Part shown: positions 1-35,465 of the stretch, piece after piece | How the letters are laid out: each line of letters starts with the position of its first letter | How positions within the stretch are numbered: the stretch's first letter is position 1 | From: an uncultured Verrucomicrobiae bacterium | Lineage (GTDB): Bacteria; Verrucomicrobiota; Verrucomicrobiia; Chthoniobacterales; JAFAMB01 | Direction: 5' to 3' | NCBI GenBank assembly: GCA_963775805.1 | Contig: CAVZKG010000004.1 | Coordinates: 70,296-134,295, forward strand | Length of the DNA: 64,000 nt | Made by a program: the position numbers and the translations under genes | Notes under the pieces: model-generated | Seen by the model: only the letters and a program-made list of their open reading frames with translations | Told to the model about the DNA's origin: nothing | Databases searched by the model: none

Positions 1-1287
1 TTCTCGTTCGCTGGTTACTTTCACTTGCAGGCGATCCCAGGGGATGTGAGGGCTCGGCTGTCGGAAGTTTAGATGCTTTGGAATCTCCCGGTGTTCGAGA
101 GCTAGCACCACCTTGATTAATCCGCTGATGCCCGCTGCTGCTTCCAAGTGCCCGACATTGGTCTTTACGGAGCCGATCATTAGTGGCTGCGCGCCCTCTC
201 GACCCGGCCCGAAGACGGCGTTAAGCGCTTGCACTTCGATTGGGTCGCCAAGAGAAGTCCCTGTGCCGTGAGCTTCGACATAGCTGACTTGCTCGGGAGT
301 TACCCGCGCATTGGCCAAGGCGTCACGGATCACCGATTGTTGGGCGGGGCCGTTCGGCGCAGTCAGTCCGCTGCTTGGACCATCCTGATTTACCGCCGAA
401 CCACGGATCAGAGCCAAGATGCGGTCGCCATCTTCCATTGCATCGGTCAATTGTTTTAGAACGATGACGCCGCAACCTTCGCCTCGGACAAACCCATCGG
501 CTGCAATATCAAACGTTTTGCACTTCCCGTCGGGCGCGAGCATCCGGGCACGCGATAACGCAGAAAAGACTTCGGGCGAAAGAATGACATTCACCCCGGC
601 CGCCAGGGCGATACGACATTCATTGTTCCGCAGCCCTTGGCAGGCAAGATGGACTGCAACGAGGGACGAGGAACAAGCTGTGTCGATTGACATGCTTGGC
701 CCTTGGAGGCCGAGGAAGTAAGATAGTCGCCCCGAAGCGATACTGCGTGCGATGCCGGAGGCGTAATACATATCGATTAGCGCCGGATCGCCCGCCTCCA
801 ACAGCAGCTGCGCGTAATCGCTGCCGCAGACACCGACATATACCCCTGTTCGGGTTTGTCCGAGCTTGGCGGGCGATTGGCCAGCATGCTCAAGGGCTTC
901 CCAGCTTACCTCGAGCAGCAGGCGTTGCTGCGGATCCATCGTCAGCGCCTCCCGAGGAGCGATGCCAAAAAATTGCGGCTCGAAGCGATCGATCCTCTCA
1001 AGGAACGCGCCATAACGCGTAGCGATCTTCCCTGGAGAATCGGGGTTCGGATCGTAGTACTCCTCGACATCCCAACGATCCGGTGGGATTTCGCGAATTC
1101 CACTACGTCCCTCACGCAGCAATCGCCAAAATTCGTCCGGCCCGGCCTCGCCTCCCGGAAAACGACATCCTACTCCGATAACCGCCAAAGGCGCGCTCCG
1201 CTGATCCTCGACGGCACCCAGCTTCGCCTGCAATTCTTCAATCGCAAGCAACGCGCGCTTCAATGGCGAGAGGTCAGTCGGTTTCAT
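1..1287 (-). CDS. Type I modular PKS, N-terminal part only (docking helix + ketosynthase); 3' end lies beyond the left window edge
   Basis: Absent from the ORF track because there is no stop in the window. My reverse-complement translation from the ATG at ~1287 gives MKPTDLSPLKRALLAIEELQAKLGAVEDQRSAPLAVIGVGCRFPGG...DTACSSSLVAVHLACQGL...VEAHGTGTSLGDPIE...SVKTNVGHLEAAAG. These are the KS Cys-His-His motifs. The + strand ORFs at 229-1452 are antisense artefacts. Confidence 0.9.
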   Translation of the reverse strand, partial: MKPTDLSPLKRALLAIEELQAKLGAVEDQRSAPLAVIGVGCRFPGGEAGPDEFWRLLREGRSGIREIPPDRWDVEEYYDPNPDSPGKIATRYGAFLERIDRFEPQFFGIAPREALTMDPQQRLLLEVSWEALEHAGQSPAKLGQTRTGVYVGVCGSDYAQLLLEAGDPALIDMYYASGIARSIASGRLSYFLGLQGPSMSIDTACSSSLVAVHLACQGLRNNECRIALAAGVNVILSPEVFSALSRARMLAPDGKCKTFDIAADGFVRGEGCGVIVLKQLTDAMEDGDRILALIRGSAVNQDGPSSGLTAPNGPAQQSVIRDALANARVTPEQVSYVEAHGTGTSLGDPIEVQALNAVFGPGREGAQPLMIGSVKTNVGHLEAAAGISGLIKVVLALEHREIPKHLNFRQPSPHIPWDRLQVKVTSERE

Positions 1288-1318
1288 GTTGGTCAGAAGA
1301 GACGTTTCAGCTGGCGAG

Positions 1319-4300
1319 CTATTTTTTGTCCAGTCGCTTCAGTAAAAGGTCTTCCACCTCCTCCTCAGTCAACGCTTCAATTTCCTGGGCTCGAGAACCC
1401 GACTGTTCATTTTGGCGCGGTTCCGCGGCGGGCTCTGTGCCCGTGCTGGTGAGTGACAGAGATTTCAAAAGAAAGTCGGAGATAGATTCGATCGTGGGGT
1501 AGTCAAACATCAACGTCGCTGGCAGTGCGCCCTTCAGGTCGATGCCCGTTTCGAGGAAGTTGCGCAATTCGACTGCCATTAAGGAATCCATGCCAAGATC
1601 CATCAACCGATCCCGAATCCCGGGACGGCGATCTGCGTCCACGCGGAGGACAGCCATTACCCGTGCCTGGACATATTCGATCATTCTCTCTTGTCGTTCG
1701 TCGGGAAGCGCTGACTCGAGGCGTTGCCGAAATTCACGAGCCGCTTCTGCAGAGTGAGAGAAGTTCGTATCAGGCGCCGGGGCCGAAGCCCGTTGGTTGA
1801 TTGGAGCGATCGGCGTGGATCCTATTTCAGCGGAGGATTGAGGTGTTCTCGCGAGAATCACATGCTGGCCGAAAACCTCTGCCGGCGAGTTTTCTTCTGG
1901 AAAAGCGGCTACTTCGTCAAATCCGCGGTCCGATAGAGCCCTCGTCCACCGTTCGCGGTCGAGAAGGGGGTGATCTCGGCGTAGGTCATCTTGAAAGTGT
2001 TCCCAGCCTTCAATAAGGCCCGTTGTTATGTCAAACCAAGCATGGTGGTGGGTTGCTTCGATCAGGAGCAAAAAGCCGCCAGGTGCCATGAGCCGGCGGA
2101 TTCGTCTCAATGCCGCGTCGAGGTCTCGAGCAGCATGAACGACGTTTGCCGCCACGATCACATCGAACGAGGCGGAAGCGAAGCCCTGAGCTTCGAGGTC
2201 CTTCTCTAAATCGAGCGCCGCAAAGCGGACGAACGAAAAGTCTGCAAAGCGCTCTTGGCCTCGAGACAAGAATAGTTCTGACACATCAGTGAACAGGTAT
2301 TCCGTCTGATCCGGGTCCAGCAAAGGCAGGAGCGTTGAGGATGTGGCGCCGGTGCCGGCGCCGATTTCCAGGATCCGCAAAGGCCGGGGTAGGTCGGATG
2401 CCAGCGATGCTGCTTCAACGGCTGCGGCTGCGATGGCATTCGCATAGCGGTTAATATTGGCGCCCGCATACAAGCGTTCGGCTAAAACAGAAGAGCCTCC
2501 GGGAAAGAGGGTCTCAAGTGCGCTCTCTTTGCCAGCCATTACGCCCGGGAGCTTTTCGGCGCAGTTACGGAGATACGCGAGCAAATCTGGATCGTCTGCG
2601 AGGAGTTGGTCCGCCTCTCGAGTACAGGAGGGCAAATCGAGGTCCGGCAACGCTTTTTCGCTTACGAATCCGCCAACCTCGGCCCGCAGCAATCCTGCCC
2701 CAGTCAGACGCATCATCCATCTGGTCAGTAGAGGTCCATACATCGATGGTATTCGGAACCTCTGAACAAGCGAATCCGCATCGTGCACCTCTCCGGGGCG
2801 GGTGAAAACGCCGAACGAACGTAAAATTTCGGTCGTATTCGCAACAGTCAGACGTTCGAGGCAGGCCCATTTCTCGGCATAGCTATCGACGTTTACTCCA
2901 ATTGGAGTCTGGGTCGATTGTCGGAGCGCCGCTCTGCGTACTGTTCGCCAGAGATTTGCCGGGTCTCTGCGCGTCCTCCTTACCTGGCGGTCTTCTGCTT
3001 CGATCCAATAACGACGTCGCTGAAAAGGGTAGGTTGGCAAAGCCAGGCGTGTCCGGACATAATCACGATCAAATTCCGCCCAGTCGATTTCAGCGCCTGC
3101 AAGATAGAGCACTCGGAGGGATTCGAGCATTTGTAGCCAGTCTCCGCGCCCCGAACGAAGGGAAGGCAGGAATAAGAATTGATCTTTATGCAGTATATGT
3201 CGCGCCATACCCAGCAGGACTGGGTTCGGGCCGATTTCTACGAACGCTTTGACGCCAAGCGTCTCGGCCGCGCGAATGGCGCCTAAAAACTGCACGGGCT
3301 CTCGAATATGGCGGCGCCAGTATTCAGGCCGTCCAATGTTCGGCGCGTCTATTTGTACACCTGTTAGGTTCGAAATAAACCCGATCTCTAAATCCCGATA
3401 GGTCATTCTCGATGCCGCAGCTTCGAATGCATCCAAAATCGGCTCCATGAGCGGCGAATGAAACGCATGAGAAACCTCAAGATCCTTGCTCCGAATTCCC
3501 TGTTCGGTAATTCGTTTCCGTACGGTCTCGACCTGAATTGCGTCGCCTGAAATAACCACGAGATCGGGACCATTGATCGCCGCGACAGAAACTGAATTTG
3601 CGTCTGAAATCGCGGCCTGTACGATCTCCAACCTTGCGAATACAGCCACCATCCGGCCCCGGCTTGAGAGGGATTGCATCAGTCGGCCGCGTTCGGCTAT
3701 GAGTCTTAAACCATCTTCCAGGCTAAAGGCGCCCGCTACGCATGCCGCAACGTATTCCCCGAGGCTGTGACCTAACACGACCGCCGGCTGTATCCCCCAC
3801 GAGCGCCACAATTCCGCCAATGCGTATTCGATTGCAAACAATGCGGGCTGACCCAACGCGGTATTGTTGATCCCGTCAGTGGACCCGCCGGCTGGATAGA
3901 GTATCGAAAGCAACGGTCTTTCAAGAATTGTGCGAAGTAGTTCATCGCACCGGTCAATAGACCGCTTAAAGGTGGGCGATGTTTCGTACAACTCTCGCGC
4001 CATACCCGTGTATTGGGCACCTTGACCCGTAAAAAGGAAGGCTACGGGCGCAGGCGACAGACTCGTGGCCAGCGTATCAGTTCCGTCCACGTTCGCAGGC
4101 GCCTCGTCTCCTGCAAATTCGATCAAATGGCTCCGAAACTGATCTCTCCTTTCGCCAACAATCGCCATCCGCTGTGAGAAATGGGAACGGCCCGAGTTCG
4201 CGGTAAAGCAGACGTCTGCGATATGACTGGTGTCCGCCGTCTCAATACGGTTCGCGACGTTCGTTGAAAGCTGCCTCAACGCTTCAGCGTTTCTGGCGGA

Positions 4301-5743
4301 AAGAGCGAGAATGTGAACTGGTCGATCTTGCTCAGCACGGTGGTTTGTGACTGTCGGAGCCTCTTCGACGATTAGATGAGCGTTCGTGCCACTGAAACCG
4401 AAAGAGCTTATGGCGGCCATGCGTTTCGCATTGACAGGTTCCCAAGGTGTCAACTCCGTTGGGACTGCGATTGCCTCATGATCCCAGTCGATGAATGGGT
4501 TCTTTTTCGTCAAATGAAGATGTGGCGGGATCTCCTTCCGCCTGAGTGCAACTATCACTTTGAGAAGGCCGGCCACCCCAGCTGCGGCCTCCAGATGACC
4601 GATATTTGTCTTGATCGATCCAACCGAAAGCAGACTGTCCGGCGTCCGTCCCTTACACAGGGCTGCGCAAGCGGCGCGTACTTCTATCGGATCACCAAGG
4701 GACGTTCCTGTCCCGTGGGCTTCCAGGTAGCTAATTTCGCCAGGTGCGATTCCAGCCAGGGCCAGTGCCTGGCGGATAACGGCCTCCTGTGCCGGACCGT
4801 TGGGGGCGGTCAGGCCGCCGCTTCGACCATCCTGGTTGACGGCTGATCCTCGAATGACGGCAAGAATCCGGTTTCCCTCGGTCAGTGCGGCTGACAACGG
4901 TTTCAAGACAACGACTCCGCAGCCCTCACCTCTTACGTATCCGTCGGCCGTTGCGTCGAACGTTTTGCATCGACCATCGCGCGCGAGCATTCGCGACTTG
5001 GAGAAGTTAATATGCGCTTCAGGCGAAAGAATCAGATTCACTCCTCCAGCCAGAGCAAGACTGCATTCGCGGGATCGCAGACTTTGACAAGCGAGGTGCA
5101 CCGCCACCAGTGACGCTGAACAAGCCGTGTCGATCGCCATCGATGGACCATGGGTTCCAAGAAAATAAGAGAGCCGCCCTGCTGCGACGCTGTAGGAATT
5201 TCCGAGCGCTGAGTATGCATCGATTCGTTCCTGATCGCGATAAACCATTCGCCAGTAATCGCTGTTGCCGATCCCTACGAAAACGCCGGTTTGACTGCCA
5301 CGAAGCGACGCAGGTGCGATCGCCGCATTTTCCAGCGCCTCCCACGCGCTTTCCATCAGCAACCGATGCTGTGGATCCATGCTAATCGCCTCACGTGGAG
5401 AGATGCCAAAGAACTCCGCATCAAATTGGTCGACGTCGGTTAAGACTGCGCCGTGGCGCGCGTTCATCTTGCCGGGTTTATCCGGATCAGCATCGAAATA
5501 CGCTTCAACATCCCATCGGTCGTTTGGGATTTCTGTAATCGTGTCGATACCGCGTGAGAGTATTTGCCAGAGCGACTCTTCATCGCGGGCACCTCCCGGC
5601 AGCCGAAGCCCCATACCAACAATTGCGATGGGTTGATTCTGGCGATGCTCGCTTTCGTCGAGCCTAGCACGGAGCTCGCGCAGCTCCAAAATGGCGCGTT
5701 TGAGTGGGGATAGCTGGTCCTGCGTATTGGCTGCGTTACTCAT
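1319..5743 (-). CDS. Type I modular PKS, KS-AT-MT-ACP (no reductive domains)
   Basis: ORF track 1319..5857. I place the start at Met39 (MSNAANTQDQLSPLKRAILELRELRARL, ~5743), which overlaps the upstream stop by a few nt. KS: DTACSASL / EAHGTGT / KTNIGHLE. AT: GHSLGE, Arg at +25, SHAFHS (malonyl-type). SAM-MT: LEIGAGTGATSS...ANVVHAARD. ACP: LGMDSLMAVEL. Acidic C-terminal docking tail: EEEVEDLLLKRLDKK. Confidence 0.93.
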   Translation of the reverse strand: MSNAANTQDQLSPLKRAILELRELRARLDESEHRQNQPIAIVGMGLRLPGGARDEESLWQILSRGIDTITEIPNDRWDVEAYFDADPDKPGKMNARHGAVLTDVDQFDAEFFGISPREAISMDPQHRLLMESAWEALENAAIAPASLRGSQTGVFVGIGNSDYWRMVYRDQERIDAYSALGNSYSVAAGRLSYFLGTHGPSMAIDTACSASLVAVHLACQSLRSRECSLALAGGVNLILSPEAHINFSKSRMLARDGRCKTFDATADGYVRGEGCGVVVLKPLSAALTEGNRILAVIRGSAVNQDGRSGGLTAPNGPAQEAVIRQALALAGIAPGEISYLEAHGTGTSLGDPIEVRAACAALCKGRTPDSLLSVGSIKTNIGHLEAAAGVAGLLKVIVALRRKEIPPHLHLTKKNPFIDWDHEAIAVPTELTPWEPVNAKRMAAISSFGFSGTNAHLIVEEAPTVTNHRAEQDRPVHILALSARNAEALRQLSTNVANRIETADTSHIADVCFTANSGRSHFSQRMAIVGERRDQFRSHLIEFAGDEAPANVDGTDTLATSLSPAPVAFLFTGQGAQYTGMARELYETSPTFKRSIDRCDELLRTILERPLLSILYPAGGSTDGINNTALGQPALFAIEYALAELWRSWGIQPAVVLGHSLGEYVAACVAGAFSLEDGLRLIAERGRLMQSLSSRGRMVAVFARLEIVQAAISDANSVSVAAINGPDLVVISGDAIQVETVRKRITEQGIRSKDLEVSHAFHSPLMEPILDAFEAAASRMTYRDLEIGFISNLTGVQIDAPNIGRPEYWRRHIREPVQFLGAIRAAETLGVKAFVEIGPNPVLLGMARHILHKDQFLFLPSLRSGRGDWLQMLESLRVLYLAGAEIDWAEFDRDYVRTRLALPTYPFQRRRYWIEAEDRQVRRTRRDPANLWRTVRRAALRQSTQTPIGVNVDSYAEKWACLERLTVANTTEILRSFGVFTRPGEVHDADSLVQRFRIPSMYGPLLTRWMMRLTGAGLLRAEVGGFVSEKALPDLDLPSCTREADQLLADDPDLLAYLRNCAEKLPGVMAGKESALETLFPGGSSVLAERLYAGANINRYANAIAAAAVEAASLASDLPRPLRILEIGAGTGATSSTLLPLLDPDQTEYLFTDVSELFLSRGQERFADFSFVRFAALDLEKDLEAQGFASASFDVIVAANVVHAARDLDAALRRIRRLMAPGGFLLLIEATHHHAWFDITTGLIEGWEHFQDDLRRDHPLLDRERWTRALSDRGFDEVAAFPEENSPAEVFGQHVILARTPQSSAEIGSTPIAPINQRASAPAPDTNFSHSAEAAREFRQRLESALPDERQERMIEYVQARVMAVLRVDADRRPGIRDRLMDLGMDSLMAVELRNFLETGIDLKGALPATLMFDYPTIESISDFLLKSLSLTSTGTEPAAEPRQNEQSGSRAQEIEALTEEEVEDLLLKRLDKK
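1853..2905 (-). other. SAM-dependent methyltransferase domain in the KS-AT-MT-ACP module
   Basis: LRILEIGAGTGATSSTLLPLL ... YLFTDVS ... DVIVAANVVHAARDL ... GGFLLLIEA ... GWEHFQDDLRRDHPLL. It is clearly paralogous to the MT at 14491-15528. Confidence 0.75.
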
Positions 5744-8700
5744 GAGCGTCCAATTTTCCAGGGTGATCGAGCTCTGCCAGTAGGAGTGATTCTGCTTCAC
5801 TTTCGGACATCTCTTGGAGCCGCTTAAAATCGGGGTCGTCTGCGGGTCCTTCGCCATGCGTTGACGGCTGCGACGAGGGACCCAGATTCAAAACCGCTTT
5901 GGCGAGGTGACCGCAAAGCAAATCGATAGTCGGAAAGTCGAAAAGAACTGTCGGCGACAAGGAACAGTCCAAGGCACTCGCAAGCGTATTACGCAACTCG
6001 ACTGACATGAGCGAGTCGAGACCCAATTCATGCAGCGGACGATGCCTGTCGATCGGCTTGCCTGAGGCAAATCCAAGGGCGCGTGCGACTTCTACTTTCA
6101 CAAAATCCCTCAATCGATCGAGGCGCCGTGCACGCGGCAGCGTGTTCAGCTCTTCAAGAAAATTCGGGCCCTTCCGTCGCAAATCGGAGGAGGATCGGTT
6201 TTCAAAAAAGTGTCCGAAGAGCGCGGCAGAACTCCCGTGCGGAAGCCTTCGGATATACGAATCCCAGTCCGCTTTGACAGCGACAACCTGAGTCATCCCA
6301 AGTGTCAGAACTCGTTCCAGCGCCGCAATTCCTTCGGGAATCGCGATGGGCCGGAAGCCAAGCGCCACCAGCCGATCGCTCTGCTTGGAGCTGAGAGCTG
6401 ATGCCATCCCTGCACCGGCCCATACGCCCCAATTGACAGTCGTTGCCGGCAATCCCTTTTGATGCCGATAGTGAGCCAACGCGTCTAAAAAAGCATTCCC
6501 ACTCGCGTAGTGACTTTGTCCAGATGATCCGAGGACGGAGGCTGCCGACGACAGCAGAATGAAAGCGGCAAGCTGGTCGTGCAACGTCGCTTTGTGCAAA
6601 TTCCAGGCGCCATCTATTTTTGGTTTCATTACCGCGCGATAACGGGACCAATCCAATTGCACGATCGTACCGTCGTCTAGAACGCCAGCAGCATGAATGA
6701 CTCCGCGCAACGGCCCAAGCCGGCTTCGAACTTGATCGAGCACTTCTCGCAATTGCTCCTCCTCACACACGTCGGCGTGAAACGTCTCGACCAAACAGTC
6801 GTCTTTACGAAACAGCTCCAAATGTCCAAGCGCACGGGCATCAGGCGGATGTCGGTTGATGAGTGCCAACCGTTTCACACCATGCGCAATAAGCCATTTA
6901 GCAAGCTCCAGTCCTAGTCCGCCGAGTCCCCCGGTGATGACCCATGTTCCGTCTGTCTGCTGGCTCGAAAAAGGTAGGGCGTCGGTTCGTTCCTCCACTG
7001 CGAGCCGAATCACAATCTTACCCGTATGTCGGCCTTGGGCCATGTGCCGGAAGGCGAGATCGATCTGGTCTGAGGTGAAAAACTCAGTGGGTAAGGCTCC
7101 CACCTGCCCGGTTTCAATCATTGTTTTGAACTTTGAAAACAGCGATCGGATTAACTCGGGATTTTGTTTCGATACGTCGGCCAAATCGAAGGCTGCGTAA
7201 GATATCCCTGGATATTGCTCTGCAATTTCCACAGGAGTCAGCAATTCGCGCTTACCCAGCTCGATGAAGCAACCTCCAGGGCGGACCAATTTCAGGCTTC
7301 GCTTCGCGAACTCACCCGTGAGCGAATTCAGGACAACATCGATTCCGCGGTCCCCGACCAAACTGCGGATGCTATCCGCAAAATCGACGGTGCGCGAATC
7401 GAATACATGCCGCACTCCCCAGGATTTGAGCAATGCCCGTTTTTCGGGGCTGCCCGCTGTTGCGAAGACTTCCGCGCCAGCCAGTTTTGCCAATTGAACG
7501 GCCGCTAACCCCACGCCGCCCGCGGCTGCATGGATGAGTACATTCTCTCCTTTTCGCAAAGAAGCGACCTCATCAAATGCGTACAACACAGTCAAAAAAG
7601 CGACTGGTAGTCCGGCGGCCTGTTCAAGGGCAACGGTTTCCGGCCTATGAATAATTAAATCCGTGGAAACGGTAACGAAAGAGGCGAAGCCGCCCAGTGC
7701 GAAGGCGATGACTTCGTCGCCGATTTGGAATCGTGTCACGCCTTTTCCGATCGAAACGACCCGCCCTGAGCATTCACCACCCAATCGTTCTTCGCGGTTT
7801 GGCACAACCTTCAACGCGGTCAGCACGTCGCGGAAATTCAAACCTGCACAGGTAACTTGGATTTCTACTTCGCCTTTAGAGGGCATTCGCCGCTCCAGGG
7901 ATCGCCACTGCAGTTCCTCCAGGAGGCCGCTGTCGGCCATCTGAAGAGCGACTGACCGATTTGACTTATCAACCCGTGCGGGTCCGGGCCACTCATCGAG
8001 CCTGCAAAGTCTCGCGACGAAACGGCGGCCGTTCCTGAAGGCGACGCGATTATCATTTCCCATTGTCGAGGAGACCAACTCATCCAGCAATTGATCCACG
8101 TCCGTTTGTATGCCCGCTTGCGGAGTATCCAGATCAACATTTGTGCATCGGAATTCGGGGTGCTCCAACCCGATGGATTGTCCGAGGCCCCAAACCGGGG
8201 CTTGGGTTGGCTCAATCACTAACTCCTCTGCTTCTATGGCCGTTGCAGAGCGCGTGATGAGCCAGAGGCGAGGCGCATTCCGGTCGTGCTCCGCAGCCAA
8301 CGCCTGAACCAGGTGCAACACGCTTCCACAGGACAGAAGTTGATCCACTGTGAGAGAATCATTATTAGAAAGTTCCGCCGATTGCTGGTCCGAAGCCCAG
8401 AAATGGATCACGTCGTGTATTGGCCATTGATCTGAGCGGCGAAGTGCATTTAGCAAGGTGCGGAATGCTTCCGGATCCTCGGGTGCCACTTCGAAACTCC
8501 GTTCCCCCGTCTGACGGAAACCGTTCCCCGGCCATACGACGACGCATTCGGCGCCGAGACGTTCTGCGCTTTCAACAAACGTGCGTGATCGATTGCCGAG
8601 ATCACAAAAAACAAGATAGCGTCCGCGGATATCACTGGTTTTAGTCCTTTCCGTTGCCGCCAGCGGTCGCTCTTCCCAACGGATCTCATGGAGCCAGTCC

Positions 8701-12422: not shown

Positions 12423-12423
12423 T

Positions 12424-20865: not shown

Positions 20866-20874
20866 GCAAAGCGA

Positions 20875-25400: not shown

Positions 25401-26670
25401 CGATCTCTTCGAGTCCCGCGATTTCTTTGAACTTTTGGAGAATAAATACGGTTTGGAATACAGGTGTGCGCGAAAAATCACGATTTGGGTGCAGCTTTTC
25501 GACTATTAGCGGGAAAGGATAATTTCCATGACGTATGCCGTCGACGACCGCTTGGCGGACCTGTGCAAGAATTTCCCGGAAGGTTGGGTCATTGTGAAAC
25601 GACCCTAACAGCGGAATCATGTTGATAAAGTCACCAACGATATTGCCGAACTCCGGGCGATCGCGACCGTACGTCGGCGACCCAACAATAACCTCCTGTT
25701 GACCGGTATATCGGTGTAAAAGAATGTGATAGGCTGTCAGCAGAACAACGTATGGAGTTGTATTTTCTGCGGCGGCTAGAACGCGTACCGCCTTGCTGAG
25801 TTCCGCGCCCAGATCGACAGGAACCGATGCACCTATTTCAATTAACGAAGCCTGTCGCGGACGATCGGTTGGCAAGTTGAGAGACGAATGGAGGCCCGAA
25901 AGTTTGGATATCCAATAGTCTTCGTGTTCCTTCCCCTCGGGACTCGAGAGCATTGCTTCCTGCCAACGTGCGTGTTCGAGAATATCGTGCCCGGGACGGG
26001 GCGGCGGCGGCGCAGTTCCGCCCCTTTCTGATGGATAGATTTGACGCAAATCGTCTAATAGCAGGAAGAGTGACCAACCGTCCGCGGCAATGTGGTGGAC
26101 GCTGAAAACTAGCACGTAGTCGTCAACCTCACGCGAAAACAGGTCGACTCGCATGAGCGGACCGTTTTGCAGGTCGAACGGGGCTCGAGAAGCCTCAAGA
26201 ACTTCTTTTCGCAGCGCTGGCAATTCGATACCGGGCCGACTATGAAGTTCGAAATGGACCGGCATATAGCCATGAACCACTTGGTTAAGACCATTCAAAT
26301 CGGCGCGAAATGTAGTGCGTAACGAAGCGTGCCGATCTACCAACGCTTGGAACGAGCGGCGCAAAGCAGGCAGATCAATTGAGGACCGAATCCGAGCTGA
26401 AAAGACCACGTTGTACGCGGCGCTCCCAGGGTTCGCCTGATGCACGAACCAAAGGGCTCGCTGCCCATGGGAGGCCGCTTGAGTGACAGTTTCGCGGGTG
26501 GCGCGCTCGCGCCAGTCGACTAGAATCGTATCTTTTTGCGATGCCAGCTGCGATCGCAAATTCTCGGTGAGGGTCCCTTTTGTCGCTCGATACCGAAGCC
26601 GGCTTCCTTCGCCCCAGACCGTCACCCCTTGTTCGCGAAGGGTATCCATCAATGCGATTTTATCGCTCAC
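22489..26670 (-). CDS. NRPS termination module: TubC-type docking domain - C - A - T - TE
   Basis: Dock: LREQGVTVWGEGSRLRYRATKGTLTENLRSQL. C: VHHIAADGWS. A: YTSGSTGLPKGV, NMYGPTETT, YWTGDLG, GRVDNQVKIRGYRIELGEIE, PNAKVDR. T: FFELGGHSLSATRL. TE: PFFLVAG...GPYILGGDCAGG...LVLFDTH...RGDHW. Confidence 0.95.
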   Translation of the reverse strand: MSDKIALMDTLREQGVTVWGEGSRLRYRATKGTLTENLRSQLASQKDTILVDWRERATRETVTQAASHGQRALWFVHQANPGSAAYNVVFSARIRSSIDLPALRRSFQALVDRHASLRTTFRADLNGLNQVVHGYMPVHFELHSRPGIELPALRKEVLEASRAPFDLQNGPLMRVDLFSREVDDYVLVFSVHHIAADGWSLFLLLDDLRQIYPSERGGTAPPPPRPGHDILEHARWQEAMLSSPEGKEHEDYWISKLSGLHSSLNLPTDRPRQASLIEIGASVPVDLGAELSKAVRVLAAAENTTPYVVLLTAYHILLHRYTGQQEVIVGSPTYGRDRPEFGNIVGDFINMIPLLGSFHNDPTFREILAQVRQAVVDGIRHGNYPFPLIVEKLHPNRDFSRTPVFQTVFILQKFKEIAGLEEIVGYGESGVQTEFAGLVLEQFWIPQQEGQFELSIELIEKSGAYGGVLKYNPDLFEDSTVTQLAENYKTLLQAVVVLPDTNASQIPILTRTEREQLVAGLNETDRDYPKERTVVDLIRQQVVRRPNAEAVRYEKVGLTYEELDTISTRLARHLQSLGVGSESLVGVCIERGLEMVVGFLAVLKAGGAYLPLDPAFPAERLRYMLEDSGARVLITRKGLLETLFSNSTLTKVCMDADKDAIEQHDNAPIPTIAKSSDRAYVIYTSGSTGLPKGVEIEHKALTNFLCSMAREPGINEVDIFLAVTTPAFDIAALELFLPLTTGARIHVASRETVTDGVALSHVLEDSGATIMQATPATWRLLFESGWGGNQRLTALCGGETMDREMALRLVGACKSAWNMYGPTETTIWSAIAQIESNEVTIGRPIANTRIYVLDKNLEPVPRGVVGDLWIGGDGVARGYLNRTELTAEKFVSDPFRPGTRMYWTGDLGRHLSDGRLECLGRVDNQVKIRGYRIELGEIEATLSSHPGVRECVVAARKTNTGDVRLTAYVVSASSQRPTIEELRNRLKSVLPEYMIPSGFVFLDSIPLTPNAKVDRNALPAPESNEPDSTGGYVPPRNQVEQIMADAWSEILEIPKVGVFDHFFELGGHSLSATRLVARLESIFKIDLPLRSIFIEPTIAGLSKTIKYDDYADRYYHAGEICRWNRLVPAQPKGSRVPFFLVAGFMDADDTLRVLSRLIPHVGLDQPVYGFQPRWLDGVSDRYRDANEVATEFLVELRGVQAKGPYILGGDCAGGVVALVMAEKLMQQGEEVRLLVLFDTHRPTVLRSLGLDLYNAWNRAKHIIHVLAQIIRSTGSSRSAILEDLRRRKLGAEETKTEEVSATRRLYKLRMDYMRTMYRNRVKTYPGSIALIINEKQHSFDKNMGWRGVPKGGLEVHVTRGDHWTRYLHGEEIAKRLLKCLASVQGENTPLHAK
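22516..23283 (-). other. Type I thioesterase domain with a Cys nucleophile (GGDCAGG; Cys codon TGC at 23038..23040)
   Basis: Residues ~1130-1385 of the NRPS. The alpha/beta-hydrolase TE pattern is PFFLVAG ... VYGFQ ... GPYILGGDCAGGVVALVMA ... LLVLFDTH ... RGDHW. I read the DNA as gga ggt gac tgc gcc ggc ggt. Confidence 0.8.
23617..25083 (-). other. Adenylation domain, hand-extracted specificity code D-I-L-Q-L-G-M-I-W-K (glycine-type)
   Basis: Aligned by eye to the GrsA-Phe landmarks. FDIAALE gives D235 I236 L239. IMQATPAT gives Q278. ALCGGE gives L299 G301. WNMYGPTETTIW gives M322 I330 W331. PNAKVDR gives K517. Confidence 0.6.
26515..26664 (-). other. TubC-like beta-hairpin docking domain at the NRPS N-terminus
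   Basis: MSDKIALMDTLREQGVTVWGEGSRLRYRATKGTLTENLRSQLASQKDTIL matches the remembered TubC_N pattern (L..L...GV.LW.EG..LRY.AP.G.LT.EL...L...K..IL). Confidence 0.7.
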
Positions 26671-29600
26671 AGCACACCCTCCTCAAATTCGAGAACCGGT
26701 GCATTTGACCCTCTTGACATGTCAGGAGTTTGCATTGTGGCCAGCAGCTCGGTTATCCATTCTGTTAGCTCCGCAGGCGTTGGACCCTGAATGAGCTGCG
26801 CCATTGCGACACTCACACCCAAGTCGACATCGATTTGGTTCTTCAACTCGATCGACATGAGTGAGTCGAAACCCATCGCCGATATTGGCTTTTGGGGTTC
26901 AACCGAGTCAATCGGTACCTTGAGAATTCGGGCTATTACCTGCTTCAGATAATCCTGTACGAGGGTCGAGCGGTTACCGGCGTTCGTGGCCAGGATTCGC
27001 TCGCGGGTCTCGACGTCAGCGCTCTTAGCGGGAGATGTCGAACCTTCCCCAGAAACCAGCAGCGACAGATAAGGGGCGATTGCCATATCGCCGTAGGAGC
27101 GCCGCCACTCCTTCCAATCGATAGGCATGACTCCGACTTGGATATCCCCTTCATCCAGGAATAGTTCCATGGCCTCCAAAGCTTCCTGATTCGACAATGT
27201 GCCGATCCCTTTCGTGGCTCCAGTCCGGCCATGGCGTTTCGATTCCTGTTCAGTCTGAAAACGGGTGGCCATTCCCGCTTGCTCCCAGGTACCCCAGTTC
27301 ACACTCAGCGCCGGGAGACCCATCGCTCGCCGATGGTGAGCAAGCGTATCAAGGAAAACGTTCGCTGCCGAATAACCTCCCATCATTGGCGAACCCAAGA
27401 GCGCTGACGAAGACGAAAATAGAACAAACAGTTCCAAAGGAACAGTTGCCAAGAACCGATGCAAAAGCCATCCTCCGATCATTTTGGGCGCCAAGACATC
27501 TCGTATTTGCTGCGGCGTCTGGTTGCAAAATGGTTCGTACTGCATCACGCCGGCGGCATGAAATACACCTCGTAGCGGCGGTTGACCGCCCAATAAGCAT
27601 TGGTTAACGAGTTCCCGCACCGATTCCTCGTTTCCCATATCGACAATTTTTGTTTGCACGTTTGCGCCCCGTTTCTCCAGTTCGCGAATCGCCGCAATCC
27701 GGGATTCTTCGATCGATCCCCGCTCAAAGTTGTTCCATTGCTCGCGTGAGGGCATTGCCGTCCGTCCTGCCAAAGTCAAATGACGGGCGCCATGAGCGAC
27801 CAGCCAATCGGCGATGACCAGTCCAATTCCACCTAACCCACCCGTGAGCAGATAATTTGCATCCGGCCGGATCGAGATCGGGTCAGACGTTGACCTCATT
27901 TTCGACCGCCGCCCCAAGCGGAGGACGTGCTCCCGTCCGCCGCGAAAAGCAAACTGGTCATCAGCGCTACGTTTCTCTAACCGTGCGGCCAGCATATCGG
28001 CCGCTGCGTCCGGAGTATCACTCGGATCAAGGTCAAGTTGCCCGCCCCAGAAGTCAGAACATTCCATCGCGATGGCGCGACCAAATCCCCAGAGCGGAGA
28101 TTGAAGCAAGGAAATAGGGGAAGGCTTCGAATCTGCAGGTTGCGCACCTGCGGTGATCAACCACAGCTTCGGAGGAACCGTTAGCCGCAGGCGATCGAGC
28201 GATTGCGCGACCCTCAAAACGCTGATCGGTCCGAGTGACTGAGCATCTTGAAGAGCTGCTAGGTCAGCGCGTTCGAGGGTTTGCGCGTCAAGACTCCACA
28301 GATGCACAACACGCTTTAGCTCAGGTGTCAGCTTCCTTGCTTCGGAGAAGATTTGGTCATAATCAGAGGCTTGGTCGCGCCGAATCGTAATGAGTGCTTC
28401 GCCCGAACGGGAGAATTGATCCCCGTAATCCACACACAGGCATGTTGCTCCTCGTCCTCTCAGTCGTGCGCACAGTGCGTCGCCAACCCCTTGACGATCG
28501 CGAAAAATGACCCATGTTCCGGTCGCCGATGCGTCTGGAGCCCGTTCGAGATCCCTGTCACTCGGAATCCATCGAGGTTCGTAAAGCCAGTTCTGCACGT
28601 TTCGGAGCGCCTTCTCTTGTTGTTTCGAGTCCAAGTACCACAGCCGCGCTCCGATCGTCTCTGTGATGAGGTTTCCGGCGAGGTCGAACACTTTGACGTC
28701 GCCGACTAGGGTGTTATCCGCAGTAGAGTCCCTGCCGCGAATTTTTGCATAAGCGTAGAATCTTCTGCCCTCAGGCCGCCGATATAGTCGGACTTCGTCG
28801 ATACCCGCACCGACAAAGGCACCACCAAGAGCATCGTTCGATTTTTCAAGAGGAATCGTTGCGGTGAGGATGTGCCCCAAACTATCCGCAAGAGCCGGGT
28901 GAAAAACATAACTCGAGGTCTCTTGTTCGATGCCGATTGGGATTGTCACCTCGCTTAACGCTTCTCCGTTTCCCTGCCAGATCCGAGTGACGCCTTGAAA
29001 GCAGGGTCCCCACTGGTTGCCCCGATCGCTTTGCAATCGATAGAACTCGCTCCCATCCAAGGAACGGGTCAAGTTCCTTTGAAGTGCTACTCGTTCGAGT
29101 TCGTTCCATTTCTCATCCGGAATCCGGATCTCTCCGGTTCTCAGCGCACCCGTGGCGTGCAGTGTCCAATTCGTATTTCGATTTTTTCTTCGGCTGTGGA
29201 TCTGGAACTCAATGATTCCTGAACCCTGTTGCGCGAGGCGAGTTTGGATCTCAAATGTTCGACCCGACTTAAGTTGCAGTGGTCTCGCTATGTCGATCCG
29301 TGTCAAAACCACTGGCAATTCCGAAATCGCTTCGACGGCGGCAGCAATGGCCATTTCGACATACGCAGTCGCAGGGACGACGGATACGCCTTGTACGCGG
29401 TGGTCGTCGATCCAGGAGACTTTTTCCAGACTGATCTCGCCAAACCAGATATGCTCTCCTGGATGGAATGCCAGAGGTACATGCGTTCCAAGTAAGGGAT
29501 GACCGTCAGTCCGTTTGAGGTCGGGGTCAGGGCTCGAGACGGGAATCCAGTGACGCTTCCGTTGAAATTGATAGTTCGGTAGCGTAACGCTTTTGCGACG

Positions 29601-32300
29601 ATACGGTTTATCATAGGACCGCCAATCGGGGGTTGCGCCCGAAACAAAGAGCGCTCCGAGGCTCGACAGCATTTGATAGTGATCCGTCACCGCCGGATTT
29701 AACGAAGTTAGCCATGTCGTCTCCGAGTCTTGCAGACATTGGCGACCAATGCGCGCAAGTGTCGAGGAAGGTCCGACTTCGAGGAAGGTCCGGATCCCGC
29801 GAGTGTGCAGAGTTCGCAGCGATTCTTGGAATTGGATTGGTTCGCGGAGCTGTCGACGCCAATATCGAGCATTCAACGGTAAATCTTCGTCCACCAGGTG
29901 CCCCGTAAGAGTGGAGATCATGTCTACTTTTGGGATGGCACACGGAAGGCCTTCGGCAAATCGCTCTAGTTCTCCCAGGATCGGCTCAACAAGCGGTGAA
30001 TGGAGCGCGTGCGAAGACGACACCAATTGCGCATCGATGCTCAGGGAGCGGAAACGTTCAATTAAACGGTGAATAGCGTCCGATCTCCCAGAAATTACCG
30101 TGTTTTGTGGCGAGTTTACTTCGGCGATAGCGACCAAATCGGCATAGCTTGTGATTTCCTTCCGTACTAGTTCCTGTCCGGAGAACACGCGGGCTATCGC
30201 ACCATCCCGGGGTAAATTTTGAATGAGGCGCGATCGGAAGGCTACTAAACTTATCGCGTCCTCGAGAGCCATCGCCCCTGCAATACAGGCGCCTACATAT
30301 TCGCCTACGCCGTGGCCAAGGATCGCTGACGCTTCAATTCCCCAAGAACGCCACAGGGAAGCAAGCGCATACTCGAGTGCGAACAGAGCTGGTTGGCTGT
30401 AGCGAATTTCATCGGGAATGATCTCAGATTCAAAATGGTCAACGTAGTGGAGGAGTTTCAATAAAGGACGATCGCAGTGCTTGGTAAGCGCAACTGCGCA
30501 TTCCTCAATCGCATTGCGGAATATCGGTTCGGTTTCATACAGGGTCCGTCCCGCGCCCCTCTGTTCCGTTCCTTGCCCAGCAAACAAAAATGCGACTCTG
30601 GAGTCGGAGCGAACGCGCCCGTGCACGAGTTCGGAATTCAATTGACCCAGAGCGAAATCATTGAGCGATTTGCACGCTATCGCAATCTCTGGCGCTGAAA
30701 AAGCCAAGCGGTGGGAGAGGGGTGATCGGTCTGCCATAGCCGAATGACAGATGTCCGCTAAAAATTGTTCTGTGCCTTCTCCGAAATGCTTGGAGTACGT
30801 CAAAGCTAGTTCCTTCAACGCAGGCTCGGTGTCGGCAGAAAGAACAAACAGGTGGACTGAACGATCCTCCCGCGCCGGTTCGGTATCTAACTGCTTTTCA
30901 GGAGGTGGCTCTTCCAGAACAACGTGGGCATTCGTGCCGCTAAACCCGAACGAACTTACTCCTGCCAGACGCGGACGCCAGGATCGGGGCCAACTCACCG
31001 TTTGAGTGCAAATCTCGATCGGTGCCTGACCTAAGGAAATTCGTGAGCTGAGCTTTTGAAAATGAAGCTGAGGCGGTATTTCCTGATGCCCCATCGATAG
31101 GACCACCTTGATTAGGCCCGCGATGCCCGCGGCTGACTCAAGATGTCCTAGGTTGGTTTTTACCGATCCTACACGCAACGGCTGATTTGTCGGGCGATTC
31201 TTACCAAGAACCTTCGCCAAAGCTTCGAGTTCGATTGGGTCGCCGATCGCGGTTCCGGTGCCATGGGCTTCCACGTAGTCCACATCTTCAGGTTGGATGC
31301 GAGCAGCCTTCAACGCGGCTCGAACCACGCTCTGTTGCGCCAGCCCGTTGGGAACGGTCAATCCGCTACTTGCACCATCCTGATTGACTGCACTGCCGCG
31401 GATCAGGGCCATGATTCGGTCTCCTGCCGCCACTGCGTTGTGAAGACGTTTCAACGCAACGACGCCGCACCCTTCCGCTCTTACGAAGCCATCCGCCCTC
31501 TCATCGAAAGTCTTGCATCGTCCATCCATCGCCATCATGCCCCACTTTGCAAAACAGACGAACGGTTCGGGTGTAAGAAGCATGTTGACCCCGCCGGCCA
31601 GTGCCAGGTCGCACTCGCGCGCGCGAAGACTCTGGCAGGCTAGATGGACAGCGACCAACGAGGACGAACACGCCGTATCAATTGCGATGGATGGCCCGGT
31701 GAAACCGAACACAAAAGAAAGCCTGCCCGCTGCGACGTTTAGTGCTCCACCGGTGGCAGTATAGACATCGAGACTCGCTGAGCTGTTTGCCGCCAATCGA
31801 GCGTAATCGGAAGTTGTTATCCCGACAAATACTCCTGTCGGCGATCCTCGCAGACTATTTGCGGCAATCCCCGCGTTTTCCAAAGCTTCCCAAGTGACTT
31901 CCAGCAGAAGTCGCTGTTGGGGATCCATGCTCTCGGCTTCCCTGCCTGAGATGCCAAAAAGCCCTGCGTCAAAGCGGTCGACCTGATCCAGAAAGCCGCC
32001 AAACGGCGCGTGCATTTTACCGGGCGCGGACGGGTCCGGATCGTAGTATGCGTCCTTGTCCCAACGATCGGGCGGCACTTCTTTGATCGCATCGACGCCA
32101 TGGCTCAAAAGTTTCCAATAGGCTTCGGGATTGTCGGCCCCTGGGAATCTGCATGAAAGGCCGACGACAGCGATCGGTTCGTCCTGGGAGCGTTCGGCAA
32201 TTTCGAGACGGCTTTGGAGCGAATCAATCGCCTCCATAGCTTTTCGCAAAAGGACCTTACGCTCGCCTTCTTGGCGAGCGGCAATGTTGAGATCTGCCAT
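26667..32300 (-). CDS. Type I modular PKS, KS-AT(like)-DH-KR-ACP; first gene of the operon
   Basis: 1877 aa. N-terminal coiled-coil dock: RKVLLRKAMEAIDSLQSRLEIAE. KS: DTACSSS/EAHGTGT/KTNLGHLE. AT-like: FAGQGTEQRGAG, GHGVGE, SHALHS. DH: HRVQGVSVVP, LADSLGH. KR: TGGLGGIG, GGYSAANVF. ACP: MGFDSLMSIEL. The stop overlaps the NRPS start (ATGA-type coupling at 26667-26670). Confidence 0.95.
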   Translation of the reverse strand: MADLNIAARQEGERKVLLRKAMEAIDSLQSRLEIAERSQDEPIAVVGLSCRFPGADNPEAYWKLLSHGVDAIKEVPPDRWDKDAYYDPDPSAPGKMHAPFGGFLDQVDRFDAGLFGISGREAESMDPQQRLLLEVTWEALENAGIAANSLRGSPTGVFVGITTSDYARLAANSSASLDVYTATGGALNVAAGRLSFVFGFTGPSIAIDTACSSSLVAVHLACQSLRARECDLALAGGVNMLLTPEPFVCFAKWGMMAMDGRCKTFDERADGFVRAEGCGVVALKRLHNAVAAGDRIMALIRGSAVNQDGASSGLTVPNGLAQQSVVRAALKAARIQPEDVDYVEAHGTGTAIGDPIELEALAKVLGKNRPTNQPLRVGSVKTNLGHLESAAGIAGLIKVVLSMGHQEIPPQLHFQKLSSRISLGQAPIEICTQTVSWPRSWRPRLAGVSSFGFSGTNAHVVLEEPPPEKQLDTEPAREDRSVHLFVLSADTEPALKELALTYSKHFGEGTEQFLADICHSAMADRSPLSHRLAFSAPEIAIACKSLNDFALGQLNSELVHGRVRSDSRVAFLFAGQGTEQRGAGRTLYETEPIFRNAIEECAVALTKHCDRPLLKLLHYVDHFESEIIPDEIRYSQPALFALEYALASLWRSWGIEASAILGHGVGEYVGACIAGAMALEDAISLVAFRSRLIQNLPRDGAIARVFSGQELVRKEITSYADLVAIAEVNSPQNTVISGRSDAIHRLIERFRSLSIDAQLVSSSHALHSPLVEPILGELERFAEGLPCAIPKVDMISTLTGHLVDEDLPLNARYWRRQLREPIQFQESLRTLHTRGIRTFLEVGPSSTLARIGRQCLQDSETTWLTSLNPAVTDHYQMLSSLGALFVSGATPDWRSYDKPYRRKSVTLPNYQFQRKRHWIPVSSPDPDLKRTDGHPLLGTHVPLAFHPGEHIWFGEISLEKVSWIDDHRVQGVSVVPATAYVEMAIAAAVEAISELPVVLTRIDIARPLQLKSGRTFEIQTRLAQQGSGIIEFQIHSRRKNRNTNWTLHATGALRTGEIRIPDEKWNELERVALQRNLTRSLDGSEFYRLQSDRGNQWGPCFQGVTRIWQGNGEALSEVTIPIGIEQETSSYVFHPALADSLGHILTATIPLEKSNDALGGAFVGAGIDEVRLYRRPEGRRFYAYAKIRGRDSTADNTLVGDVKVFDLAGNLITETIGARLWYLDSKQQEKALRNVQNWLYEPRWIPSDRDLERAPDASATGTWVIFRDRQGVGDALCARLRGRGATCLCVDYGDQFSRSGEALITIRRDQASDYDQIFSEARKLTPELKRVVHLWSLDAQTLERADLAALQDAQSLGPISVLRVAQSLDRLRLTVPPKLWLITAGAQPADSKPSPISLLQSPLWGFGRAIAMECSDFWGGQLDLDPSDTPDAAADMLAARLEKRSADDQFAFRGGREHVLRLGRRSKMRSTSDPISIRPDANYLLTGGLGGIGLVIADWLVAHGARHLTLAGRTAMPSREQWNNFERGSIEESRIAAIRELEKRGANVQTKIVDMGNEESVRELVNQCLLGGQPPLRGVFHAAGVMQYEPFCNQTPQQIRDVLAPKMIGGWLLHRFLATVPLELFVLFSSSSALLGSPMMGGYSAANVFLDTLAHHRRAMGLPALSVNWGTWEQAGMATRFQTEQESKRHGRTGATKGIGTLSNQEALEAMELFLDEGDIQVGVMPIDWKEWRRSYGDMAIAPYLSLLVSGEGSTSPAKSADVETRERILATNAGNRSTLVQDYLKQVIARILKVPIDSVEPQKPISAMGFDSLMSIELKNQIDVDLGVSVAMAQLIQGPTPAELTEWITELLATMQTPDMSRGSNAPVLEFEEGVL
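29706..30599 (-). other. Acyltransferase-like domain with the catalytic Ser replaced by Gly (GHGVG; Gly codon GGC at 30309..30311)
   Basis: Residues ~568-865 of the 1877-aa PKS. I read the DNA directly: ctt ggc cac ggc gta ggc gaa = L G H G V G E. The upstream GQGxQ box also deviates (GQGTEQ). Arg +25 is retained. Confidence 0.8.
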
Positions 32301-32400
32301 TTACGACTTTGGTTGGTTAGTGCTCGCTTCGGATACACGACGAGCTACCGCCATTTGTGCCGGTTTGCCGGATGCACGCACTCCTTGTTTCTCCAGGCTC

Positions 32401-32421
32401 AATGAATGGGTGACATTCATT
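32401..32421. promoter_or_regulatory. 8-bp inverted repeat AATGAATG-ggtga-CATTCATT in the divergent PKS/PPTase intergenic region
   Basis: Read directly from the sequence. It lies 101 bp upstream of the PKS operon start (32300) and 191 bp upstream of the PPTase ATG (32612). Function is unknown. Confidence 0.25.
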
Positions 32422-32611
32422 ACGGTTAATCGACATTGGGCGCAATTTATTTAGCTAAATTGTCTTGCAGAACGCGAATAAATTGCAAAATGCAGACCTG
32501 CCCCAAAAAAAGCAAGTGTCTCCTCCAGCGTTTTAGTGCGTTTGTAGAGTTCGTTTGTCTAGAGCGCCCAGGTTTTCTATAACACGGAACAGCCAAGAGG
32601 AAATCGTTTGG

Positions 32612-33367
32612 ATGAATTTGGAAATCGTGAAAGGGGATTCCGCGTTGTTTACCCGCCGGGACGTGCAGATTTGGGGAATCTGGTTAACCGCGCCCGATTC
32701 GGTGGTCGGTCAGTATCAACTATTGCTTTCCGTCGACGAACGTCAACGGTCGGATCGGTTCGGCTCCGCAAAGTTGAAGAGCCTCTATGTTTTATCAAGG
32801 AGCGGATTGCGGATCTTGCTCGGCCACTATCTCAATTCATCGCCAGAAAAGATAGAGTTGACTCACAGGCCAAACGGGAAGCCGGAGTTGCGAAGTGCGG
32901 TACCGCTGCGGTTCAACGTTTCGCATTCAGGGCAGATGGCGGTCTACGCGTTCACGGTTGGCTGTGAATTGGGTATAGACATCGAAGAACTCCGTCCGCT
33001 GGAAGATGCAGAGGCGATCGCGGCACGCCACTTTTCGAACGCCGAGATTAGTGAATTACGATCTCTGGAAGGTGAGGAGAGAAACCTGGCGTTTTTCCGA
33101 TGTTGGACGCGAAAAGAGGCCTATCTGAAAGCGATCGGTGAGGGGCTTACCGTCCCGCTCGATTTGTTTCAGGTCACTCTCCTTCCGGAGACGCCGGCGC
33201 GGCTGGTTCACATTGGAGGGGATATCGCGGCTGCCGGCGATTGGATATTTCACAACCTCGACATGGCCCCGGGATACGTCGGAGCTTACGTTTACCGCGA
33301 CAAGCTGCGTCCGGTCACGATCTATCCGATGATTCGAGCCGACGAGCTCCCGGAATTGCTAGCGTAG
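32612..33367 (+). CDS. Sfp-type 4'-phosphopantetheinyl transferase
   Basis: FNVSHSGQMAVYAF ... LGIDIEE ... CWTRKEAYLKAIGEG are the PPTase motifs. The ORF track begins at TTG 32555. I prefer ATG 32612 (MNLEIVKG), which has an AAGAGG 11 nt upstream. Confidence 0.88.
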   Translation: MNLEIVKGDSALFTRRDVQIWGIWLTAPDSVVGQYQLLLSVDERQRSDRFGSAKLKSLYVLSRSGLRILLGHYLNSSPEKIELTHRPNGKPELRSAVPLRFNVSHSGQMAVYAFTVGCELGIDIEELRPLEDAEAIAARHFSNAEISELRSLEGEERNLAFFRCWTRKEAYLKAIGEGLTVPLDLFQVTLLPETPARLVHIGGDIAAAGDWIFHNLDMAPGYVGAYVYRDKLRPVTIYPMIRADELPELLA

Positions 33368-34312: not shown

Positions 34313-34331
34313 CCAATTCCGCATTTCCCAC

Positions 34332-35318: not shown

Positions 35319-35398
35319 TAGTAACTCGGTAAGATACAATCGACCGAACGCAAGCCGGGAACAGATTTCGGCCCGATACGTTGGCGATTCGGAAAATT

Positions 35399-35416
35399 GG
35401 TCCAAAAATTTGGACC
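35399..35416. promoter_or_regulatory. Palindrome GGTCCAAA-aa-TTTGGACC upstream of the LLM oxidoreductase gene
   Basis: Read directly from the sequence. It lies about 80 nt upstream of the ATG at 35318, on the minus-strand promoter side. Function is unknown. Confidence 0.2.
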
Positions 35417-35465
35417 GGTTCGGCAAAAATTGCCGTCGGGTTTACTGCAAACTTATTCCTGAGCG

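Follow-up and report, generated by a model that had tools for sequence, protein, structure and literature searches.

An orphan hybrid polyketide–peptide operon with a serine-less acyltransferase, probably from a soil verrucomicrobium

Gene map, active sites and chain release

The left half of the 64,000-nucleotide stretch analysed here (contig CAVZKG010000004.1, positions 70,296 to 134,295 of the forward strand; hereafter the window) carries eight minus-strand genes, g1 to g8, which probably constitute a functional orphan operon of the hybrid type I cis-acyltransferase (cis-AT) polyketide synthase (PKS)–nonribosomal peptide synthetase (NRPS) kind, belonging to an uncultured soil bacterium that is likely a Chthoniobacterales-like Verrucomicrobium. 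According to the open reading frame (ORF) list and the inspection of start codons, all eight genes run in the same direction and together span positions 1–32300. Adjacent genes overlap by up to 11 nt or are separated by up to 31 nt, which suggests full or near translational coupling. Both the gene count and the junctions of the initial annotation were thereby reproduced. Also every domain in the domain string given there was confirmed by Pfam; the E-values of the listed domains were between 1e-8 and 1e-150, and chance is not an issue. The same annotation had raised the possibility of disrupted pseudogenes, of which the window gave no sign: one dead AT motif aside, the reading frames across the 32 kb contain no internal stops or frameshifts.

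The last PKS module is encoded by g1 (26667–32300, minus strand as all the genes to g8; Pfam and motifs). In this protein an N-terminal docking helix is followed by ketosynthase (KS), inactive acyltransferase (AT0), dehydratase (DH), ketoreductase (KR) and acyl carrier protein (ACP) domains and by a C-terminal docking tail, EFEEGVL. The next gene, g2 (22489–26670; Pfam), encodes a terminating NRPS module composed of a TubC_N dock and condensation (C), glycine-type adenylation (A), thiolation (T) and thioesterase (TE) domains; its database gene call starts at the ATG at 26649 and gives a protein of 1386 aa, to which the entry P0001, encoded on a 602,493-bp contig in NCBI and ENA, is 100% identical. 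Two exporter genes follow: the ABC transporter ATPase g3 (21690–22499; Pfam and NCBIfam), which resembles the DrrA subfamily with a score under the cut-off of the NCBIfam model, and the ABC-2 type permease g4 (20875–21693; Pfam). Loader and module 1 are joined in g5 (12424–20865; Pfam and motifs) as ACP_L-KS-AT_L-AT1-DH-cMT-KR-ACP, where cMT is an embedded C-methyltransferase. Module 2, g6 (5736–12422; Pfam and motifs), is fully reducing, with an enoylreductase (ER) in the order KS-AT-DH-ER-KR-ACP; an alternative start at 12452 was called for it on a Logan contig. Module 3, g7 (1319–5743; Pfam), is KS-AT-cMT-ACP without reductive domains, and of module 4 the window holds the KS at the start of g8 (1–1287; Pfam), a gene that leaves the window at its left edge. 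The N-terminus of g5 is an ACP, and those of the other PKS proteins are KS docking helices.

Divergent from g1 lies the Sfp/HetI-type phosphopantetheinyl transferase (PPTase) gene (32612–33367, plus strand; Pfam and NCBIfam). This gene had been noted at the outset, and it held up: the protein matches the Pfam model and, at 1e-43 but below the cut-off, the HetI model of NCBIfam, and a plausible ribosome-binding site precedes the ATG at 32612. The g7 protein was byte-identical on an independent Logan assembly of the run ERR11523669, where g5 and g6 are present as well; the contig, found by exact look-up of g7, is 32.6 kb long and ends 0.4 kb past this gene. For g1 and P0001 such look-ups returned no record. 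The GC content is 55–57% in the cluster and 52–56% in the flanks.

A KS, an integrated AT and an ACP stand together in g1, g5, g6 and g7 in the Pfam maps, while g8 ends after its KS. Motif reading found Cys-His-His in all five KS domains (DTAC[SA]S, HGTGT and N(I/V/L)GH). The three DH domains all keep HxxxGxxxxP and the downstream Asp of LD/AD, and the ER motif GGVG of g6, the S-adenosylmethionine (SAM) motifs of the cMT domains and the carrier Ser residues are present. Among the KR domains, that of g6 has LDD (B-type) and that of g5 ADD (B-type-like), and that of g1 is without LDD and also without the A-type Trp. The nucleophilic Ser of GHSxG is found in four of the five integrated ATs, the one without it being the AT of g1.

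The tandem-AT loader seen in the initial annotation was confirmed in g5, in which an N-terminal PP-binding domain and two Acyl_transf_1 stretches after the KS give the order ACP-KS-AT-AT, the layout of the soraphen synthase SorA. It had further been claimed that all ATs with an intact Ser are of malonyl type. By the xAFH rule of thumb this would apply to the three extender ATs (GHSVGE/YAFH in AT1 of g5, GHSVGE/RAFH in g6 and GHSLGE/HAFH in g7), and the methyl branches would consequently come from the two embedded methyltransferases, as had been proposed. The claim did not extend to the loader AT of g5, which has its Ser intact in AHSLGE and carries AAHS in place of xAFH; the residue at the position of FabD Arg117 is apparently Ser (ungapped alignment by eye only).

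In g2 the C domain has the motif HHIAADG, the T domain its Ser, and the TE a triad of Cys, Asp and His. Reading the A-domain code by hand, in an alignment with the core motifs of GrsA, gave DILQLGMIWK, which is canonical for glycine. The best solved-structure match of g2, the Gly module of LgrA, agrees with glycine, and the module is thus predicted to be the glycine-terminating NRPS described initially. The motifs FDIxxLE and NMYGPTETTIW were kept in 34 of the 34 g2 orthologues found.

The nucleophile motif of the TE, GGDCAGG (23029–23049, minus strand, with the Cys codon at 23038–23040; motif reading), bears out the Cys-TE that had been reported, the Asp lying in LVLFDT and the His in GDHW. 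The Cys was present in 31 of the 34 orthologues, and in the other three the motif was not located by pattern. When 1.84 billion representatives were scanned in full by HMMER with the TE domain as query, 102 matches fell below 1e-30 and 8487 below 1e-10. Among the best 150 matches (representatives P0371–P0520), of which 146 were alignable at the nucleophile, Cys was found in 129 and Ser in 14; motifs of the glycine code were present in nine of the best 45. Cys is thus the norm in a large, essentially unstudied TE clade with no close relative of known function. Solved structures gave only weak matches to the TE, the best being 7crn/7dxo at E = 2e-14.

The C-A-T-TE order of g2 is shared with the stand-alone termination module AB3403 (ABBFA_003403 of Acinetobacter baumannii, PDB 4zxh), which matched g2 in phmmer at E = 1e-186 over residues 57–1236. 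The A domain of AB3403 also uses glycine. Unlike g2, AB3403 has neither a TubC dock nor a modular PKS feeding it, and its product is also uncharacterised, so that no functional prediction follows from the likeness. The TE of AB3403 has a Cys nucleophile and an Asp at the usual position (PMC11298585). The Asp of the g2 TE occupies the alignment column of the canonical Asp in AB3403, NocB and Skyxy-type TEs. Since both Cys and Asp align to AB3403 (GGDCAGG/LFDT against GGWCFGG/MIDT), the triad is taken to have canonical geometry. With ObiF and SulM, which form beta-lactones and beta-lactams, the g2 TE shares the GxCxG nucleophile; in those enzymes, however, the catalytic Asp is relocated, in SulM to a loop after strand beta7 (PMC11298585; see also PMC6668435 for the criteria), whereas that of g2 is at the canonical position, and the last residue in g2 is not a beta-hydroxy or beta-amino acid. 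ObiF was not among the matches listed for the g2 TE against solved structures. Formation of a beta-lactone or beta-lactam was excluded by the canonical Asp together with glycine as the last residue, because glycine has no beta-nucleophile and a four-membered ring is impossible.

Related clusters and the last PKS module

A search with g2 returned about 34 clusters of full-length orthologues with 61–70% identity and the same six-domain architecture, all of them from metagenomes or metagenome-assembled genomes (MAGs). Seven loci, L083–L089, were read, and these represent five distinct clusters (L084, L086 and L087 are one, as are L088 and L089). The seven loci have the order last PKS module, dock-C-A-T-TE, an ABC pair that is present, inverted or absent, the ACP-KS-AT-AT loader protein, and KS-AT-DH-ER-KR-ACP. 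Judged by these loci, the gene order that had been called non-colinear is a conserved trait of the family. Differences of a single domain were also seen, module 1 lacking the DH in L084, L086 and L088 and module 4 having an extra cMT in a further locus, L082. In L090, a distant relative with 49% identity (L090:6692-24299, contig of 4.3 Mb), the order [KS-AT-ACP][dock-C-A-T-TE(Cys)] is retained, with an A-domain code (FDVSVWE...) other than that for glycine; the NRPS gene is followed by a type II thioesterase, a PPTase and an AprA-like (pseudo-GNAT/methyltransferase) PKS loader.

The AT of g1 has the active-site motif GHGVGE (30300–30317, minus strand; motif reading), in which Gly stands in place of the nucleophilic Ser that the other ATs have; the serine-less AT of the initial annotation is therefore real. 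The same domain has GQGTE for GQGAQ and HALH for HAFH. Among five aligned g1 orthologues, which include the window and L085, three carry GHSLGE; the motif is also found in L084, nearly identical to L086. The L085 orthologue (L085:6807-10001, on a 2.4-Mb ENA contig) is still more reduced, consisting of a KS0 (EAQGTGT, His to Gln), an AT0 (GHGLGE, DPFH) and an ACP, with DH and KR cleanly deleted. The adjoining NRPS and loader genes of L085 are intact, no ABC pair is present, and the ORFs in the remainder of the locus as read (about 24 kb) are intact too. A sequencing error behind the GHG of the window was ruled out by the two further deviant motifs, by the divergence along the whole AT, and by the independent change of AGT to GGT in L085.

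Pairwise identities of the KS-AT region placed the window outside the other four orthologues (66–67%) and nested L085 among the intact relatives (77–86%). We therefore count two independent inactivations of the terminal AT, one in the lineage of the window and one in that of L085. Divergence was measured as the share of positions invariant in the three intact g1 orthologues at which the window differs. The share was 38% for the AT of g1, while it was 9% for the KS, 20% for the DH, 18% for the KR and 17% for the ACP; by the same measure the two working ATs of g5 reached 17–23% and the KS of g5 13%. The excess in the g1 AT was significant (Fisher p 9e-4 and 6e-7). The g1 AT thus looks unconstrained and its neighbouring domains in g1 constrained.

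Because the divergence is raised only in the AT, we prefer the reading in which g1 still elongates the chain, with malonate delivered in trans. A serious rival, possible though doubtful, is that g1 is a non-elongating transfer module in an otherwise functional cluster, in which the KS hands the chain to the ACP, the DH and KR perhaps finish the previous beta-carbon, and the product is one C2 unit shorter. Loss of the Ser along with two further catalytic motifs fits such a module, as do the two independent inactivations read from the identity matrix, and L085 shows what the end-point looks like, with KS0, AT0, a deleted DH-KR and the rest of the locus intact. The other domains of g1 argue for elongation instead: the KS has a complete Cys-His-His and is the best-conserved domain of the protein, and in the DH and KR the catalytic residues are present and the conservation matches that of working domains, which would be unexpected without a substrate. 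A comparison can be made with the non-elongating KS0 modules of trans-AT lines. L085 resembles them in having KS0 (His to Gln)-AT0-ACP before an NRPS, and g1 shares the AT0 part only; unlike those modules, both are of cis-AT type with a vestigial AT, and the KS of g1 retains the decarboxylation His.

Known systems, assembly order and predicted product

The best matches in a PKS scan of 185,579 species genomes had at most 56% identity, and all were unrelated PKSs; a metagenome scan gave two loci only, and a plasmid megablast found no match. The literature searched held nothing matching the architecture and no cis-AT product from Verrucomicrobia, and on Cys-TE polyketide–glycine systems and verrucomicrobial PKS products it gave general surveys only. 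These surveys note divergent, uncharacterised PKS and NRPS clusters in Verrucomicrobia (e.g. PMC8692599). The initial annotation had not recognised the cluster as any characterised one, and this stood: that the cluster is uncharacterised is supported by the lack of named close homologues and by the literature, no counterpart having been found. It would be unlikely, then, that the operon is a divergent homologue of a characterised producer of a glycine-terminated polyketide. All its parts are of standard types, and the closest solved relatives are CurL, LgrA and AB3403, as might be expected of such a homologue, but the close homologues, with at most 70% identity in the NRPS, are metagenome or MAG proteins throughout. 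The least probable reading is that of a decaying, non-producing remnant in which the change of Ser to Gly killed the terminal module and pseudogenisation is under way, for although the nucleophile of one essential AT is gone, about 32 kb of frames are uninterrupted, every other catalytic motif is intact, the translational coupling is preserved, the raised divergence is limited to the AT, and in L085 the rest of the line is intact beside an even more degenerate terminal module.

Several individual parts have known counterparts. In SorA, with an ACP-KS-AT-AT loader, the first AT selects the starter (PMC5655351), and as in SorA the loading ACP and loading AT of g5 are merged into the first extension module; unlike SorA, the g5 module also has DH-cMT-KR, its loader AT has AHSLGE/AAHS, and the host is not a myxobacterium. 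The KS-AT of g7 has its best solved relative in CurL of the curacin line (E = 4e-301), and Pfam shows a CurL-like linker. Also the TubC_N dock and the embedded SAM methyltransferases combined with malonyl-type ATs recall cyanobacterial and myxobacterial cis-AT PKS-NRPS lines. The module string and the phylum differ from those of curacin and TubC-type lines, however, and no sequence is near enough for the same product. The cluster is accordingly a new example of a well-known pathway type, the modular cis-AT PKS-NRPS, from a poorly explored phylum. The initial annotation had stressed that several unusual features occur together. All of them are real, but individually they proved less unusual than had been thought, the SorA-type loader being known, the Cys the norm of the TE clade, and the gene order family-wide.

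We infer that the proteins act in the order g5, g6, g7, g8, at least one module beyond the left edge of the window, g1 and g2. In the manner of SorA, the first AT of g5 would charge the N-terminal ACP with a starter acyl group. Module 1 would then add malonate, C-methylate, reduce and dehydrate to give a 2-methyl-enoyl unit, and module 2 would add a fully saturated C2 unit. Module 3 would contribute a C-methylated unit with its beta-keto group retained, as g7 has no reductive domains. Going by the relatives, module 4 and those after it would again be strongly reducing and partly C-methylating. The last C2 unit would be added as an enoyl by g1; with its own AT dead, the ACP of g1 would have to be malonylated in trans by another AT. 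The EFEEGVL tail of g1 would dock onto the TubC-type domain of g2, and this order of g1 before g2 is supported by the stop/start overlap of the two genes, by the TubC_N dock and by the tail, which is kept in five orthologues (as EIEEGVL in L088; alignment A1).

The chain would be joined to glycine by g2, and the Cys-His-Asp TE would hold the acyl-glycine as a thioester before freeing the product by hydrolysis or by macrocyclisation onto a hydroxyl of the chain. Export by the ABC-2 pair would complete the pathway, in which the PPTase would prime the seven carrier domains that the window shows. As read from the domains, the visible part predicts a chain of starter, 2-methyl-enoyl, saturated C2 and 2-methyl-3-keto units, further extended, probably ended by an enoyl and amide-linked to glycine. 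The product would accordingly be a fatty-like polyketide with methyl branches and a glycine cap. Tetramic-acid (Dieckmann) release was judged unlikely here, as the DH and KR of g1 are apparently active and no beta-keto-acyl-glycine is expected; for a variant of the L085 type, with KS0-AT0-ACP, it is conceivable only where the module before it has left the beta-keto group in place.

The continuation to the left was sought with the KS of g8. The module-4 KS domains of L081 and L082 are 81–83% identical to g8, and both loci continue as KS-AT-DH-(cMT)-ER-KR-ACP and then with a further KS-AT-DH-cMT... module. By analogy with them, at least two further modules (more than 10 kb) probably lie to the left of the window. 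Both loci, the nearest relatives of modules 2–5, are long-read assemblies in which each megasynthase is split into many short ORFs by frameshifts, and a full-length g8 was absent among the matches listed for the search with the g8 KS fragment, which were short or fragmented proteins only. A 28.9-kb contig, L091 (ERZ25039494 contig_69948), holds at least three consecutive KS-AT-(DH)-cMT-KR-ACP modules but was not used, its relation to the cluster not being established; a KS 82% identical to g8 (P0132) was assigned to it by the g8 KS search and was not located in the part of L091 that was read.

For the taxon, the window offers the GalT encoded to the right of the cluster, whose best named matches, with 73–77% identity, belong to Chthoniobacterales or Verrucomicrobia MAGs. 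Several points weigh against the functional, verrucomicrobial and elongating line set out above. One of the named GalT matches is annotated as Acidobacteria. The decay of L085 to KS0-AT0-ACP shows that the family tolerates losing this extension, and g1 may be non-elongating too; the divergence of the g1 AT, for its part, could stem from an AT swap instead of decay. AT specificity is read from xAFH by a rule of thumb, and no prediction follows from the loader motif AAHS. The part played by the ABC pair in the pathway is insecure, since relatives lack the pair or have it inverted. Finally, the left end of the cluster is beyond the window, which limits any structure prediction with regard to chain length, the hydroxyl for cyclisation and tailoring genes.

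A wider proposal, which we put forward tentatively and hold to be doubtful as a whole, is that the approximately 34 clusters form a new family whose products are highly reduced, C-methylated polyketides capped with glycine, made by uncultured soil Verrucomicrobiota and freed by the unstudied Cys-TE clade, and that the last module of the window works with a dead, decaying AT through trans malonyl transfer. If this were true, g1 would stand, as a natural intermediate, between the logic of cis-AT lines and that of trans-AT lines, beside a relative with KS0-AT0-ACP. Orphan assembly lines are very common in MAGs, and current understanding is not overturned by this one. What is most interesting in it is the conserved Cys-TE clade, which is unstudied and populous and differs in layout from the two studied Cys-TEs (ObiF and SulM), together with the repeated stepwise silencing of the terminal-module AT. 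The natural series from intact modules through AT0 to KS0-AT0 with a deleted reductive loop bears on the silencing or re-use of modules in the evolution of assembly lines, and the single-domain variants (the DH of module 1 and the cMT of module 4) amount to analogues provided by nature. Soil Verrucomicrobiota are abundant, hardly any have been cultured, and as far as the literature was searched none has had a cis-AT polyketide product assigned; heterologous expression or synthetic-bioinformatic chemistry could reasonably be aimed at such a conserved family of intact lines.

Flanking genes

To the right of the PPTase gene lie genes for a DUF5069 protein, an LLM oxidoreductase and a phosphodiesterase, galT, galE, ABC importers and a second ABC-2 pair, and farther right those for a MEKHLA protein, a PATR-repeat protein, a GH116 enzyme and a STAND NTPase. 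None of these flanking genes was kept beside the clusters of the relatives, which places the right cluster boundary at g1 and the PPTase gene. No tRNA genes were found in the window.

The second ABC-2 exporter pair (46081–47776, minus strand), a NodI/DrrA-like ATPase and a NodJ-like permease, lies 13 kb to the right of the cluster and is positionally unrelated to g3 and g4. Near the right end of the window, a gene for a 989-aa nSTAND1 NTPase that has a long coiled coil resembling tropomyosin (60732–63701, minus strand) adjoins one for a 1079-aa protein in which two solute-binding-protein domains are fused to an OmpA domain (57425–60664, minus strand). PADLOC gave only weak LmuB- and ZorB-like matches for the STAND and OmpA proteins and no defence-system assignment.

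A stand-alone MEKHLA-domain protein (48587–49045, minus strand) is encoded divergently from a 1182-aa protein with PATR (autotransporter-associated) repeats (49157–52705, plus strand); we take such repeats to fit a Verrucomicrobiota origin. Close to the PPTase gene, two mirror-image ORFs of 364 aa overlap, one on each strand (34227–35321, plus strand, and 34332–35426, minus strand). The minus-strand ORF, the only one of the two that was scanned, matches an MsnO8-type LLM oxidoreductase, and the plus-strand ORF is probably a shadow ORF.

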